From an archaeon (lineage in GTDB: Archaea; Nanobdellota; Nanobdellia; Pacearchaeales; GW2011-AR1), in assembly GCA_018694115.1 (NCBI GenBank), contig JABHNB010000005.1, positions 374 to 64,373 of the forward strand: 64,000 nucleotides of DNA, in the 5' to 3' direction. A model generated the notes under the pieces. That model was not told the DNA's origin. It did no database searches and saw nothing but the letters and a program-made list of their open reading frames with translations. Positions 3,344 to 53,508 of the stretch are shown piece by piece. Position numbers and translations under genes: made by a program. Position 1 is the first letter of the stretch. Every line of letters begins with the position of its first letter.

Positions 3344-3559
3344 TTACAACTCTACGGGCTTAAACGCTGCTGCCCTTCTACGATCTAATTTTTCCTGAGT
3401 CAAAATCTTTCCCATATAAATTCTAACTGGCATTCCTGGACGCCAGCCCATCGGGCCTGCAGTCTGTCTATAAATTTCACTACGTTCACTAGGGGATGAA
3501 TTTTCCGGATGCGGAAAATCAACATCAATCATCTTTCTCCAATCATCACATATTGCCAT
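3344..3559 (-). CDS. small hypothetical protein
   Basis: 71-aa ORF filling the gap between topA and the upstream gene. No family recognised. Confidence 0.25.
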   Translation of the reverse strand: MAICDDWRKMIDVDFPHPENSSPSERSEIYRQTAGPMGWRPGMPVRIYMGKILTQEKLDRRRAAAFKPVEL

Positions 3560-3589
3560 AACTCCTAAAAAATTCCTGCCTTTATATTG

Positions 3590-5860
3590 CTATTCTTTTT
3601 TCTTGCTCGCCTTCTTCTTAGCCTTCTTCACACCACTTTTCTTTTTCACAGATTTCTTCTTCACTTTCTTCTTCTTAGTATGATCAATAACCTTTCCACC
3701 TTCACCAATCTCAATTTCTCCAGAAGCTAACTTCTTCTTGAACTCTTCTTTCTTCTTTGTCAACTCTTCATTTGTGGAACATTCTGGATTAAAACAAAAC
3801 TTCCATGGCGATCGCCCTTTTTGAAAAGACATTACGAGTGGAAATCCACATTCTTCACACATCTCTAAGGCATCTTCTTCCTTGCCTGCCTCTTCAGCAG
3901 CTTTCTTAGACATTCTAGCTGGCTTCATCAATCCTCGCGGAGGCAATGAATAAATATTTTTACATTCAGGGTAAGCATCACATGAGACAAAATATCTGCT
4001 AAACCGCTTTCCATACATAACTCTCAAGTTTCCTTTCTTACACTTTGGACATTGAGTCATTGTATTCTCTTCTCTCTCCTGCTCATTGACAATTGCATTC
4101 GCATCAGCAAGTGACTTTCCCATAGCCTCGAGATTCTTAGTCATTCCCTCTGCAATCTTACTAATCGATTTCTTTGCCTTATCCAATATCTTCTGTTCTT
4201 TTTTCTCTAAATCTTTGTCTGAAACTTCTATTTTTTCAAGTTCCTTTGTCATTTCTCCAGTAAGCTCCTCATCAAGAATAATCGGAGAAAATTTCTCAAG
4301 AGTTTCAGCCATTCGCATACCCAGTTCAGTTACTTCAATTGCCCTGCCTTTTGCATAACCCCTCGTAAAGAGAGTTTCAACAATTCCTGCCCGGGTAGCT
4401 TTAGTTCCCAAATTCTTTTTCTCTAAATTCTTAACAAGAGAAGCTGCAGAATATCTTCTTGGAGGTTTTGTTTGCTTCTCTTCGGTCCTGATTTCTAGTA
4501 CATCAACTTCCCCATCCATTGTTGGAACTTCACTTTCCTTAATTGATGTTGGATAAACATTCATCCAACCTTTGTCCTTGATCTGAACTCCCCTAGCCCC
4601 AAACTTCAATCCCCCAACATCTATCTTTACATTCTTATTCTCAACCTTAGCCGAATCACAGAAACACGAAATAAACCGCTTTACAATCAAATCATAAATC
4701 TTCTTATCTCTCTCAGGAACTTTCTTCGCTTCGCCGGTCGGATAAATAGCGGGATGTGCCGGATCTTCTTTCTTACCTTCGGTAGGTTTCTTATTCTTAG
4801 CATACTTAACAACCGTAGTATATTTCTTCAATTTCTTCAAAATTTTATCATATCCAATCGCAGCAGGATATTTCTGGCTTGAGGTTCTTGGATAAGAGAT
4901 TGCTCCTGCAAGATAAAGGTTCTGAGCCGCCCGAAGAGTCTGGGTAGGTGTAGTTCCGCAATATTTGTAAGCTTCAGTCTGTAATGTGGTTAGATCAAAT
5001 GGCGTTGGGGCAGGAACATCCTCAACCTTTATGATGGTAGTCGCAGTTCCACTCTTTCCCTTAAGATGCTTGAATCTAAGTAACTCAGATTGCTTGAAGA
5101 TATCCTTTGGATATTTTACCTCAAGTCTTTTCCCTTTAATATTCTTAACTTGAAGAAAAATCTGCCAATAAGGTTCTGGCTCAAATGCCTGAATCTCTCT
5201 TTCTCGATCAACAACAATCTTTAACGCAGGACCTTGTACCCTTCCAATAGACAAAATCCTAAATGCTCCCGCCTTAGCAATAGCCTTCATTAATCCTCTA
5301 GAAAGATTAATTCCATAGAACCAATCCAAATAGTGCCGTGTCTCTCCTGCAATGGCCGCACCCCAATTAAGTGTTGGAATCAAATTTTCAAATGATTCTT
5401 CAAGAGCTTCCTTTGTAAGGGAAGAAAACTTCATTCGCTTAGCCACTTTCTCATACTTCTTTCCAAGAACGAATCGCACGACATTCCACCCAATTACTTC
5501 CCCTTCAACATCAAAGTCCGTAGCGACGATCGCTTCATCAACTTCTTTAGCAAGTCGTTTCAATGTTTGTAAATATCGCTTTGTATGTGCGGACCGCTTC
5601 TTGTTAAATGAAGGTTTCCATTCAACCTCAAAGTTAGGAAATGGCCCCCTGAGCGCAATTTGCTGAATCCCAAACAGATGTCCAACAGCACACCCAATGA
5701 TATATCTCCGCCCTTTCTTAAAAAACTCATAATATGCAACGCCTTCCTTGCTTGTAAGCTTCTCATCAGTCGCATCAGATAATGCAGCAGCTATCTTCGC
5801 CGCAGCCGCAGGCTTCTCACAGATGATCAGTGTAGCATTACGCTCTTTTTTAACTACCAT
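3590..5860 (-). CDS. topA: DNA topoisomerase type IA (topoisomerase I/III)
   Basis: N-terminal TOPRIM (IICEKP...TDFDVEGE). Internal Zn-ribbon motifs (CPKCKKG...CDAYPECK, CEECGF...CFNPEC). Lys-rich C-terminal tail. No helicase domain, so not a reverse gyrase. Confidence 0.8.
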   Translation of the reverse strand: MVVKKERNATLIICEKPAAAAKIAAALSDATDEKLTSKEGVAYYEFFKKGRRYIIGCAVGHLFGIQQIALRGPFPNFEVEWKPSFNKKRSAHTKRYLQTLKRLAKEVDEAIVATDFDVEGEVIGWNVVRFVLGKKYEKVAKRMKFSSLTKEALEESFENLIPTLNWGAAIAGETRHYLDWFYGINLSRGLMKAIAKAGAFRILSIGRVQGPALKIVVDREREIQAFEPEPYWQIFLQVKNIKGKRLEVKYPKDIFKQSELLRFKHLKGKSGTATTIIKVEDVPAPTPFDLTTLQTEAYKYCGTTPTQTLRAAQNLYLAGAISYPRTSSQKYPAAIGYDKILKKLKKYTTVVKYAKNKKPTEGKKEDPAHPAIYPTGEAKKVPERDKKIYDLIVKRFISCFCDSAKVENKNVKIDVGGLKFGARGVQIKDKGWMNVYPTSIKESEVPTMDGEVDVLEIRTEEKQTKPPRRYSAASLVKNLEKKNLGTKATRAGIVETLFTRGYAKGRAIEVTELGMRMAETLEKFSPIILDEELTGEMTKELEKIEVSDKDLEKKEQKILDKAKKSISKIAEGMTKNLEAMGKSLADANAIVNEQEREENTMTQCPKCKKGNLRVMYGKRFSRYFVSCDAYPECKNIYSLPPRGLMKPARMSKKAAEEAGKEEDALEMCEECGFPLVMSFQKGRSPWKFCFNPECSTNEELTKKKEEFKKKLASGEIEIGEGGKVIDHTKKKKVKKKSVKKKSGVKKAKKKASKKKE

Positions 5861-51073: not shown

Positions 51074-51781
51074 ATGAGGGACGAAAAAGATTTAACAAAG
51101 AGGATAAAAAATTCATTTAGGGCAGGAAAGTCAAGAGCAGAAATTATCCGGGGTCTCCAAGCACGAGGATGTAAATTAGAATATGCCGATGCTTTGATCA
51201 ATAGAGCAAAAATTCCAAAAAGAGTTATGGTTTCAACACTAATCGTCGCGGTCTTAATCGTCGTTTCATTATCTGTAGGATATGCTCTAAACATTGGGGC
51301 AGAAAAACATCACCTCCAAAACCCCCTAACTGGGAATGTAATCTTTTCAGGACAATCTCCTGTGGAAGTTAATATTGCGGAACAAACATCTGGGCCATCA
51401 CAGAGGATAGCAATTGATGAAATAGAGATTACTCCCGAATTTATTTCCTATCTCCTAAACGAAATCGGTGCGTGGGAACTCCATAAAAATCCGCTAACTT
51501 TTGAGGAACCGATAATTAATTTCAAAATAGGGAATAAAAATTTCTATTCAAAAATTTCTGAACATATCCCACAAACTTTCCCTGGATTAAGCGATAATGC
51601 AGATTTGCAGTTCAATACAAACAAAGAAGACATCATTAAAGCAACAAGTTCACAATCGCCCCGAGAAGTCTTCAAAGATTCTTTAGCCAATGGTGGAACA
51701 AAAATCACTACTCTCGTCGGTGAAACCGAACTTTTCGCAAAAGGATATCTGAAATTATATGAAGATTTGAAGGATTTTTAA
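51074..51781 (+). CDS. hypothetical membrane-anchored protein
   Basis: Single N-proximal TM helix (VSTLIVAVLIVVSLSVGY). Confidence 0.35.
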   Translation: MRDEKDLTKRIKNSFRAGKSRAEIIRGLQARGCKLEYADALINRAKIPKRVMVSTLIVAVLIVVSLSVGYALNIGAEKHHLQNPLTGNVIFSGQSPVEVNIAEQTSGPSQRIAIDEIEITPEFISYLLNEIGAWELHKNPLTFEEPIINFKIGNKNFYSKISEHIPQTFPGLSDNADLQFNTNKEDIIKATSSQSPREVFKDSLANGGTKITTLVGETELFAKGYLKLYEDLKDF

Positions 51782-51880
51782 TTTGTCCGCTACCACTTTG
51801 AAATTATCTGTTCCTACTCTCTAATTTTCTGTATCTACTCCTCGTGGACGATTTTTCGGGGAAAGGCTTATAAGTAAAAT

Positions 51881-52192
51881 ATGACTCTAATATATACATT
51901 AGAACATATATGTTCAAAAGATACTATGGGAGACAATTTCGACTTATTTTTCAGAAGAAAACCAGCCTTGATGCTGATTGCCTTAAAGAAAGTTTCACGT
52001 GCAAAGTACGGTTCTATCTTGGCAAAGGAAGTTGACTGCACATATAGCCATGCAGTAAAGATTCTACAGACTCTTGAAGAAATTGGATTAGTAGTCTTCG
52101 AAAAGAAGGGAAGAATCAAGATTATCCGATTAACAAAGAAAGGTGAGGATGTTGCAAACGCAATTGAATCAATTAAGAAGATTGTTATCTAA
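51881..52192 (+). CDS. small winged-helix transcription regulator
   Basis: 103-aa HTH-like protein (ILAKEVDCTYSHAVKILQTLEEIGLVVFEKKGRIKIIRLTKKG). Lies directly upstream of tRNA-Lys. Confidence 0.45.
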   Translation: MTLIYTLEHICSKDTMGDNFDLFFRRKPALMLIALKKVSRAKYGSILAKEVDCTYSHAVKILQTLEEIGLVVFEKKGRIKIIRLTKKGEDVANAIESIKKIVI

Positions 52193-52246
52193 TTATCCTC
52201 TCACAAAACTTTTTAAATCAATTTTTCTCAATTAGTTTAGCATAAT

Positions 52247-52321
52247 GGCTTCATAGCTCAGCCTGGTCAGAGCACTAGACTCTTAATCTAGGTGTCGGGG
52301 GTTCAAATCCCCCTGAGGCCA
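52247..52321 (+). tRNA. tRNA-Lys (anticodon CUU)
   Basis: Cloverleaf GGCUUCA-UA-GCUC...GAGC-A-CUAGA-CUCUUAA-UCUAG-GUGUC-GGGGG-UUCAAAU-CCCCC-UGAGGCC-A. No encoded CCA. Coordinates +/-2. Confidence 0.8.
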
Positions 52322-52443
52322 TTTGAAACACCGACAGTCGGGGGCGAGAATTTCGCTTTGAGTAAAACAATCCTTAAGATTTTTACGAAATGCAAAATTT
52401 GAGTAGAATCCCCCTGAGGCCATTTGAAACACCGACAGTCGGA
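52306..52443. repeat. 36-bp perfect direct repeat (tRNA-Lys 3' end plus 21 nt downstream), att-like
   Basis: aatccccctgaggccatttgaaacaccgacagtcgg occurs at ~52306-52341 and again at ~52407-52442. The downstream part contains the palindrome ccgacagtcgg. Confidence 0.7.
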
Positions 52444-52482
52444 CATAATCTCCTCCCGACCACAAATCCACTGCTAGAAATA

Positions 52483-52791
52483 TTAGTCATCAACCCTATT
52501 TACGTTCTTACACTTAGTACACTTATAGAACTTTGATTCAGCTTCGTCTCCAGACCTCATTTGCCGAGTCCAGAAATATGCCTTATTATTTTTACACTTC
52601 CTACACTTATATTCAGTAATTGGATAAACCTCGCCCTGCTTCTCATTAACAACTGCAACTTGAGTACCTTCATTAATTTCCTCTTTAATTTCCATCTTTA
52701 CCTTTCCAGAAGCCATATACTTACATCTAGGACACCCAAACTTGGTCTTCTTCATCATTAAAATTGCACCACATTTCGGACAAAATTCCAT
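52483..52791 (-). CDS. tfs: transcription factor S (TFS) / RNAP subunit M-like, TFIIS-type Zn ribbon
   Basis: N-terminal CPKCG...CPRC. C-terminal CRKC...RSGDEAESKFYKCTKC with the acidic SGDE hairpin loop. Confidence 0.8.
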   Translation of the reverse strand: MEFCPKCGAILMMKKTKFGCPRCKYMASGKVKMEIKEEINEGTQVAVVNEKQGEVYPITEYKCRKCKNNKAYFWTRQMRSGDEAESKFYKCTKCKNVNRVDD

Positions 52792-52837
52792 CTTTTAGCT
52801 TAATTCTCAAGACTTTTAAATGTTTAGCATAGAAAAA

Positions 52838-53434
52838 TTACCTACAAAGGCCTCGATTTCGAGAGTCTCTAGTGCCCTCAAAGAAAATCAACTTAGCCCA
52901 CCCAATAAATGGGACCCTGAATAGCGCCTTTCCAATAATTCTTTCCTCTGGAATATCCATCTCTGATGAAAGCAGGCCCCCATTTGTCTTATAATTATCT
53001 CCTTTAGTCGTAAATTTTTCATCAACGGAGATCAATCGATGGATTAATGGATGATTTTGGCCTCCATCAAAAATGATAACATCCCCAACCTCCAAATTCT
53101 TGGGCCCAACAACAAAGATAACATCTCCCTTTGAGAACCCGTTTTGAAAAATCCAGCTTCCAGTATCTTCTAACGAAATTCCAAAATTCCCATATATTTC
53201 GCTGACAAATGTCTGCTCAAACCCCGGTTCTTCATGATACATCGAACAACTCTCTACGATAACTAGCGGAAGGGCAGTACCTGTTAAAAGAGAGAGAGTT
53301 GGAAAGAAGATGAATTTGATAAAGATGAATGCCAAGACAAGAGTAACTACGAATGAAGACCAAGAATCATCATTCAGGAATTTCCAAAACCTCTTCGTAT
53401 ATTCCGTAGGGGTATTAGTCACCATTCCCAACAT
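52838..53434 (-). CDS. signal peptidase I (archaeal Sec11/S26 type)
   Basis: N-terminal TM. Catalytic-Ser region VIVESCSMYH. GDVIIF and HRLI boxes. Confidence 0.55.
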   Translation of the reverse strand: MLGMVTNTPTEYTKRFWKFLNDDSWSSFVVTLVLAFIFIKFIFFPTLSLLTGTALPLVIVESCSMYHEEPGFEQTFVSEIYGNFGISLEDTGSWIFQNGFSKGDVIFVVGPKNLEVGDVIIFDGGQNHPLIHRLISVDEKFTTKGDNYKTNGGLLSSEMDIPEERIIGKALFRVPFIGWAKLIFFEGTRDSRNRGLCR

Positions 53435-53508
53435 ACGTTAAAATGCTTTATAATATTAATGGAAACTATCCGCAAACATTTATAAAGTATATACTTGTTC
53501 GTATACAC

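Follow-up and report, generated by a model that had tools for sequence, protein, structure and literature searches.

A duplicated tRNA-Lys(CUU) 3′ end in an archaeal genome and its probable origin in a very small, gene-less insertion

The 64-kb window, by which we mean the whole 64,000-nucleotide stretch of archaeal DNA that was analysed, contains an intact tRNA-Lys(CUU) gene between a gene for a winged-helix (wHTH) protein and a convergent gene for transcription factor S (TFS). The original prediction had placed an exact 36-nt repeat after this tRNA gene (16 nt of tRNA and 20 nt of downstream sequence, spaced 101 nt apart with about 65 nt between the copies), and our analysis confirmed each of these points, along with the positions and strands of the two flanking genes. 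The features of the locus are as follows.

51881-52192, plus strand: wHTH protein, assigned by Pfam DUF6293_C and HTH_27 and by synteny
52247-52321, plus strand: intact tRNA-Lys(CUU) (Rfam RF00005, 70.7 bits; ARAGORN, 52246-52322)
52303-52324, plus strand: putative shared recombination core TCAAATCCCCCTGAGGCCATTT, from the T-loop to 3 nt past the discriminator, delimited by the second-copy boundaries in loci L011, L028, L036, L040 and L025
52306-52341, plus strand: copy 1 (A) of the exact 36-nt repeat
52331-52341, no strand assigned: palindrome CCGACAGTCGG at the end of copy 1, a weak hairpin seen in the sequence; present again at 52432-52442, the end of copy 2
52342-52406, plus strand: insert B, 65 nt and gene-less, matching the insert at the corresponding site of L025 with 77% identity over 52 nt
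52407-52442, plus strand: copy 2 (A′) of the exact 36-nt repeat, the attR-like side, made up of a displaced tRNA 3′ end fragment and the same 20 nt
52483-52791, minus strand: TFS (PF01096 and homologues), the host gene of the right flank, convergent with the tRNA

The 64-kb window has exactly two copies of the 36-mer, AATCCCCCTGAGGCCATTTGAAACACCGACAGTCGG, with 65 nt between them. The tRNA gene lacks an encoded CCA, and its last 16 nt, which open copy 1, comprise part of the T-loop, the 3′ strands of the T-stem and the acceptor stem, and the discriminator. The corresponding fragment in copy 2 (52407-52422) lies on the same strand in direct orientation, 85 nt downstream of the tRNA. No third copy of the 36-mer with up to three mismatches was found in the window (chance expectation 0), nor were any extra copies of its tRNA part or its trailer part at the same tolerance, and the tRNA-Ile gene elsewhere in the window lacks a comparable duplication. 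Copies 1 and 2 are followed by unrelated sequences (GGGCGAG... and ACATAATC..., respectively). The arrangement is therefore A-B-A′, as opposed to a full tandem duplication, and TRF reported no tandem array at the locus. B contains no open reading frame of substance, no inverted repeat was found within it in a repeat scan of 51500-53500, and GC content is even across the region, at about 37-40%. A 62-aa minus-strand ORF (52283-52471) spans the repeat and the insert, and one public assembly calls a 48-aa gene in the same place (L007:10510-10656, plus strand). Neither of these ORFs over B and A′ is conserved in L025, and both are probably spurious.

Every flanking gene has a housekeeping role in a small archaeon; the products are seryl-tRNA synthetase, the wHTH protein, TFS, a membrane protein, Cdc48, methionine aminopeptidase, NAC, Sec61-beta and a MinD-like protein. 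Most named homologues of TFS belong to Candidatus Pacearchaeota MAGs. Sequence comparison indicates that the wHTH gene is part of the host, conserved beside tRNA-Lys in Pacearchaeota, and lies outside the insert; the gap between the wHTH and TFS genes measures 161, 290, 610 and 2750 nt across relatives. Precomputed Pfam annotation contained no integrase domain for any gene within 10 kb on either side, in agreement with the original prediction that no integrase is nearby. L035 has a TFS 94% identical to that of the window; what follows downstream of TFS (L035:831-891) is wholly different and looks like the beginning of a further tRNA gene. Even close relatives thus lose their shared gene order at precisely this intergenic position.

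We found ten loci in assembly records of ENA, NCBI (GCA_018648095.1) and JGI that are 100.000% identical to the window over 10-20 kb. Both repeat copies are present in nine of them, and the tenth (L010) stops at the start of copy 1. As these nine come from separate assembly records, the repeat is not an assembly artefact; because the identical records represent one clone, they carry no information on population variation or on occupied or empty alleles. Two scaffolds of ERZ23491529 (129 and 212; L005 and L010) break inside tRNA-Lys with a 55-nt overlap (window 52254-52308). We rejected this break as a sign of an element: the overlap is a k-mer overlap of 55 nt, most likely where the de Bruijn graph branched on a stretch of tRNA that a co-occurring relative shares.

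The palindrome at the end of each copy had been proposed to act as a hairpin terminator. Its hairpin has 4 bp (-3.3 kcal/mol, z = -0.34) and is not followed by a T-run, which makes it unconvincing as a terminator; in a predicted fold, the two palindrome copies can pair with one another. Split tRNAs are known in Nanoarchaeota, and in the minimum-energy fold of a 224-nt transcript the 5′ acceptor strand pairs with the downstream copy, as might be expected if the second copy were an alternative or trans-spliced 3′ exon of a split or intron-containing tRNA. The nanoarchaeotal cases are discussed in PMC3293823. At the window locus, copy 1 already completes a normal tRNA, and no bulge-helix-bulge motif able to splice inside the tRNA emerged from a brute-force search. 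The sole formal motif joins the trailer palindromes outside the mature tRNA, where RNAfold prefers a continuous helix with an A-A mismatch, and the second copy is decayed in three of the relatives described below (L025, L013 and L022). An exon of this kind is thus very improbable, and we regard the split or intron reading as essentially refuted at this locus.

The A-B-A′ layout also occurs 3′ of tRNA-Lys in several DPANN genomes, from Pacearchaeota, Woesearchaeota and Nanoarchaeota. A scan of one-genome-per-species contigs and JGI metagenomes for the tRNA T-arm and acceptor sequence returned 22 loci; at each, the last 30 nt of the tRNA and 12 nt of trailer were aligned to the next 400 nt, and the score was compared with those of shuffles. 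Scans of the public collections were single-shot and used exact patterns. A second copy was clear in the window (score 56, shuffle maximum 21), in L011 (66, shuffle maximum 20) and in L028 (39, shuffle maximum 20), marginal in L016, L019 and L025, and absent from about twelve other scanned loci. L036/L039 and L040 were added through their TFS homologues. In L036/L039, where TFS is 82% identical to that of the window, the tRNA-Lys has a different acceptor stem (GGCTCCA/TGGGGCC); a 45-nt insert separates it from a second copy, AAATCCTCTTGGGGCCATTT (identity 18/20), that bears this lineage's own G/acceptor sequence TGGGGCC. Upstream of the gene in the same lineage, at a distance of 27 nt, is a partial copy of the tRNA-Lys 5′ end, GGCTCCGTAGCT, which includes the TATAT before it (L036:2870-2925; also L039 and L037), so that the tRNA-Lys of L036 is flanked by fragments on both sides. 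In L011, a Nanoarchaeota MAG, tRNA-Lys(CUU) is followed by identical units in the order A-B-A-B-A (3515-3924), with a period of 121 nt, identical 90-nt inserts, at least three copies of the 3′ end and a 100-N gap inside the array.

The boundaries of these second copies are consistent. The core TCAAATCCCCCTGAGGCCATTT is repeated 3′ of tRNA-Lys in several other lineages, and the second copy in the window lacks only its first 3 nt (TCA). In every well-preserved second copy the left edge lies in or at the T-loop, at -16 to -22 from the 3′ end (-16 in the window, -19 to -22 in the relatives), and the copy extends through the discriminator plus TTT. The T-loop, the T/acceptor junction and the anticodon loop are recognised crossover subsites of tyrosine integrases in tRNA genes (PMC4383910). 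Across loci, the duplication is 19 to 36 nt long, and second copies range from perfect to badly decayed, L025, L013 and L022 being among the decayed ones. Their distribution is patchy among close relatives, with none in L042, L049 or L021, and the downstream gene differs by lineage (a convergent TFS, or a co-directional HhH-GPD or LPG synthase gene). CRISPR arrays have unrelated inserts between identical repeats, and casposons have terminal inverted repeats and a 14-15 bp duplication. We considered and rejected a CRISPR-like or casposon-like insertion, given that different genomes share homologous inserts, that those of L011 are identical to each other, that B has no inverted repeat and that the duplication measures 19-36 nt.

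Two relatives carry additional DNA at this site. In L040 (GCA_030638705.1), the syntenic wHTH-TFS gap holds the tRNA (end at 5771-5800), a 77-nt insert, a second copy of the tRNA end 97 nt on, 1.15 kb of further sequence and a third copy 1155 nt beyond the second. The 1.15 kb contains a truncated Fic gene (Pfam E = 6.8e-9, last 28 profile positions only) and a TraB/PrgY-like ORF, and homologous sequence (..TGACTCGC..GCGACCC) precedes both extra copies. This arrangement looks like an element accretion, in which a mini-insert would stand in tandem with a decayed, cargo-bearing insert. Compared with the window, the tRNA-Lys of L040 is inverted relative to wHTH and TFS, and a pseudo-copy about 70 nt upstream of the tRNA (5628-5654 and 5721-5797) fuses the tRNA's upstream leader to part of the variable loop and T-arm; inversion and pseudo-copy together suggest repeated rearrangement at the site.

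The second case is polymorphic within a TARA-ocean Pacearchaeota population. Over 1639 nt, L052 and L049 share 99.94% identity and differ only by a C to T change inside the tRNA core (AAATCCCC[C/T]CAGGGCCATTT); right after ...GGCCATTT, L052 continues into 75 nt unrelated to L049. In L061, from the same sample, the C allele is joined to the normal host flank. The comparison of L052 with L049 and L061 looks like an attL junction beside either an empty site or an attR. Over the first 12 nt after the tRNA, the L052 insert (TTTGAATCACCG) matches the window (TTTGAAACACCG) at 11 of 12 positions, a hint that the 'trailer' may be element DNA. An independent profile built from the window and L025 did not detect the rest of the L052 insert, and homology of this insert to B was rejected, the match being confined to those 12 nt. 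A comparison of related genomes had been proposed with the original prediction; it produced the cargo between tRNA-end copies in L040 and the junction polymorphism in L052, but neither an occupied nor an empty allele of the exact window locus, for which all assemblies are of one clone.

These observations bear on whether the window's repeat arose by local duplication, through replication slippage or unequal crossing-over and with no recombinase or foreign DNA involved. The tandem amplification of the unit in L011, the lack of an integrase and the perfect 36-nt identity, which suggests a recent local event, would all accord with such an origin. However, the sequence after copy 2 is unrelated to B and TRF finds no array, the extra DNA in the polymorphic species (L052) does not come from local sequence, and the copy edges cluster at the T-loop in independent lineages, a consistency not expected from slippage. 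We therefore consider local duplication quite unlikely as the origin of the repeat; slippage may be a secondary event behind the 20 nt by which the identity runs past the tRNA.

Alignment places the inserts between tRNA-end copies in homologous families. The window's B (type I) is identical to the L025 insert at 40 of 52 positions (score 37; maximum of 2000 shuffles, 32), a match also found by nhmmer, and L025 is the one relative with type I among the loci found. It is a distant one: gene order is shared with the window (wHTH, tRNA-Lys, convergent TFS), the TFS, winged-helix and membrane proteins are 67%, 80% and 64% identical, respectively, and the second copy has shrunk to GGTTCAAATCCC. The original prediction had named, as evidence against an integration scar, the same arrangement in relatives with no occupied variant, together with a repeat that is a conserved tRNA-trailer or terminator duplication. 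In part this is what we see, as the distant but syntenic L025 does have a homologous insert, but its second copy is decayed, so a scar fits better than a conserved terminator duplication. A second insert type, GG(A/T)TATTTTCACC followed by the palindromic AAAATTCTTTAAGAATTTT, is common to L011 and L028 (score 56, shuffle maximum 29), and parts of it occur in L040 and in L022, in the latter after tRNA-Lys(UUU). The motif GGATTTTCACC recurs 3′ of tRNA-Lys in L011, L022, L028 and L040. We found no gene-carrying relative of B type I.

B is more similar between the window and L025 than are the hosts' neutral sites. At fourfold-degenerate sites of the flanking genes, 32 of 75 positions are identical (43%, near saturation), and the 77% identity of B counts against a neutral, vertically inherited scar. 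Either selection would act on B, or the shared ancestry of the inserts would be more recent than that of their hosts, that is, the inserts would have moved. Under selection, B and the second copy could be a host-selected module: a terminator or processing region that the tRNA gene and the convergent TFS gene share, a small RNA, or a decoy att site drawing incoming elements off the tRNA gene. Besides the conservation of B against saturated synonymous sites, such a module would account for a T5 run at the same place in B of the window (52381-52385) and L025, for two small hairpins that the window, L025 and L052 have at matching points 3′ of the tRNA, and for the recurring motif GGATTTTCACC. The patchy presence among close relatives, the decay of second copies and the varying downstream gene argue against it. 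Moreover, no fold beats shuffles (z from -1.8 to +0.3; 52247-52470, z = -1.75; 52322-52445, z = -1.79), Rfam returned only the tRNA, both at the gathering threshold and at E up to 5, and no small ORF was conserved when the sequences were read by eye. The promoter and terminator scan was built on bacterial consensus sequences and carries no meaning for archaeal DNA. On balance, we hold a host-selected module to be unlikely.

We favour, with moderate confidence, the reading that the repeat marks where a very small insertion without genes joins the chromosome on either side, and that site-specific integration of the tyrosine-recombinase type placed it in the 3′ part of tRNA-Lys(CUU). What leads us to an integrase is the same T-loop-bounded layout at tRNA-Lys elsewhere, the cargo in L040, the polymorphism in L052 and a recombinase-like family tied to tRNA-Lys that is described below. 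The attP of the element would have carried a copy of the tRNA tail from the T-loop onward and recombined with the chromosomal tRNA-Lys gene. The tRNA would then have been rebuilt from element DNA, giving copy 1, and the original tail pushed to the far side of the insert, giving copy 2; the gene at 52247-52321 would thus be the regenerated target, on the attL side. The remaining 65 bp could be the att-flanking arms left after gene loss or a miniature non-autonomous element. On its own the insert would be inert, and a matching integrase acting in trans could excise it, duplicate it or use it as a landing site. We infer both that a recombinase made the window's insert and when the insertion took place. 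Of the origins considered with the original prediction for its att-like footprint, a decayed or miniature element is the one best supported by the relatives, and the footprint of an excised element is wrong in principle, as precise excision leaves a single site.

Integration also has to accommodate the 36-nt identity, which reaches 20 nt past the tRNA and beyond the core shared across lineages. This extension calls for an extra assumption: attP and attB may have had a long stretch of homology, the unit may have been duplicated secondarily with a later deletion, or gene conversion may have acted. The array in L011 shows that units do amplify. A bolder version of integration is possible though unlikely, in which B and the tRNA-tail core would make up gene-less integrative elements of about 100 bp (attP-only, of at least two sequence types) that integrases acting in trans still move between DPANN lineages or, alternatively, a decoy landing site that the host retains and that protects the tRNA gene. 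Still-mobile mini-elements would explain the conservation of B between distant hosts, the identical units of L011, the perfect copies in the window and the patchy presence.

A candidate enzyme family lies beside tRNA-Lys in this clade. At the end of L015, a Woesearchaeota contig, a 438-aa ORF adjoins a partial tRNA-Lys copy that starts in the anticodon loop, and its only two homologues among 5.8 billion proteins (78% and 43% identical) have the same arrangement. These proteins form an orphan family of 436-445 aa (P0121-P0123), with three clusters only in that collection, encoded at L015:117-1433 (plus strand), L044:217-1554 and L045:1966-3276 (also L046-L048). Each of the three members is oriented divergently beside a tRNA-Lys 3′ half that begins in the anticodon loop, and each stands behind a palindrome that is conserved, GTGT(A/T)ACAT..(A/G)T(T/A)A(C/T)C (GTGTAACAT.ATGTTAC). 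For the two homologues of the L015 ORF, NCBIfam gave weak, consistent matches to XerC, XerD and tyrosine recombinases (E = 2e-5 to 1e-4); Pfam, PHROGs and PDB returned nothing useful for the family, and the AlphaFold model is poor (pLDDT 43). The alignment keeps GxRxGE, HxLR, GW and RY motifs, which appear to stand in the order expected for a tyrosine recombinase. From the profile matches, the motifs and the gene context, P0121-P0123 are probably a new, very divergent family of tyrosine integrases of Pacearchaeota and Woesearchaeota. Their context shows tRNA-Lys to be, on sequence grounds, a real integration target in this clade. They use the anticodon-loop subsite and so are not the enzyme of the window's T-loop site; tblastn with the family against the 64-kb window gave no homologue, and none of the collections or genomes searched yielded an integrase for sites of the T-loop type.

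A search for the 36-mer in viral and plasmid sequences had also been proposed, and none of those searched carries it. Viral contigs were scanned for the 36-mer, the 20-nt trailer, the 16-nt tRNA tail, the conserved parts of B types I and II and a degenerate form of the core, with nothing genuine found, and blastn against phage and plasmid sequences gave no match to the repeat or to B. Three viral matches were discarded: those in L033 and L034 are chance matches inside high-GC coding sequence, and that in L062 (IMGVR_UViG_3300033121_001548) is an unrelated phage tRNA array in which one tRNA-like 3′ end fits the degenerate core. This array packs seven or more tRNA-Leu genes into 4 kb, and ORFs resembling HNH endonucleases lie among them.

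Partial tRNA genes left by integrating elements are documented in archaea (PMC9897764, PMC3293823, PMC4383910), and the window locus is an ordinary kind of scar of an already known type. What is unusual is the tiny gene-less insert and the recurrence of insert families at tRNA-Lys in DPANN genomes. As in tDNA-flanked islands and archaeal elements with the Islander signature (SSV-type, pNOB8-type and PYG1 of Pyrococcus yayanosii), an intact tRNA is accompanied by a displaced 3′ fragment in direct orientation, and the block of identity starts at a recognised crossover subsite and reaches the tRNA 3′ end (PMC4383910, PMC9897764, PMC3293823). Unlike those islands, the window has 65 bp between the copies, no integrase, no gene and identity that extends 20 nt past the tRNA. 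Island finders filter out candidates that are shorter than 2 kb or lack an integrase (PMC4383910), which is why mini-remnants are uncatalogued.

The CIMEs of Firmicutes have lost integration and transfer genes, keep attL and attR, and form tandem accretions at tRNA-Lys and other targets (PMC5704250). The window fits that definition, with both exact cores retained and no genes, and L040 resembles an accretion. Unlike CIMEs, which are kilobase-sized and derived from known ICEs or IMEs, the insert here measures about 65-95 bp and sits in DPANN hosts, and no parent element was found. In the model of Sugahara et al. for Caldiarchaeum, tRNA fragments likewise lie beside a complete tRNA gene, with heterogeneity within the population, and the insert between the repeats bears a recombinase (PMC3293823). 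There, however, the fragment is a 5′ one, the insert is 1.8 kb with a recombinase gene and the outcome is intron gain; in the window the fragment is a 3′ one, the insert is gene-less and no intron or split is present.

Our comparison points to tRNA-Lys as a shared integration hot spot in Pacearchaeota, Woesearchaeota and Nanoarchaeota, in which mobile elements are almost unknown. Two classes of site, T-loop and anticodon loop, appear to be used within it, and the comparison exposes a tyrosine-recombinase-like family missed by Pfam and PHROGs. If inserts without genes are indeed mobile, they would be the smallest integrase-dependent elements described and would serve as markers for the history of elements and hosts in uncultured archaea.

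Two further observations were made in the loci surveyed. In L019, L020 and L026, from other DPANN lineages, long insertions interrupt tRNA-Lys(CUU) 3′ of the anticodon loop and look like introns of about 35-45 nt; the L019 gene is not called as a tRNA by ARAGORN and is followed, 43 nt downstream, by a 12-nt second copy of its 3′ end. Beside the TFS 3′ end of two relatives lies a conserved non-coding element of about 100 nt (L040, approximately 4550-4660, minus strand as printed; L042:4330-4480; alignment score 83). A resemblance of B to this element was rejected, the similarity not being significant, and the element is absent from the window. Its sequence runs GCAAAT.AAAATTTTAG ... hairpin ... 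GTTAAGAAATTTTAATTTGCA.TAAATACGATATTT, with a conserved outer stem and an inner hairpin that differs between the two loci. The element has no Rfam match and may be a so far undescribed small RNA.
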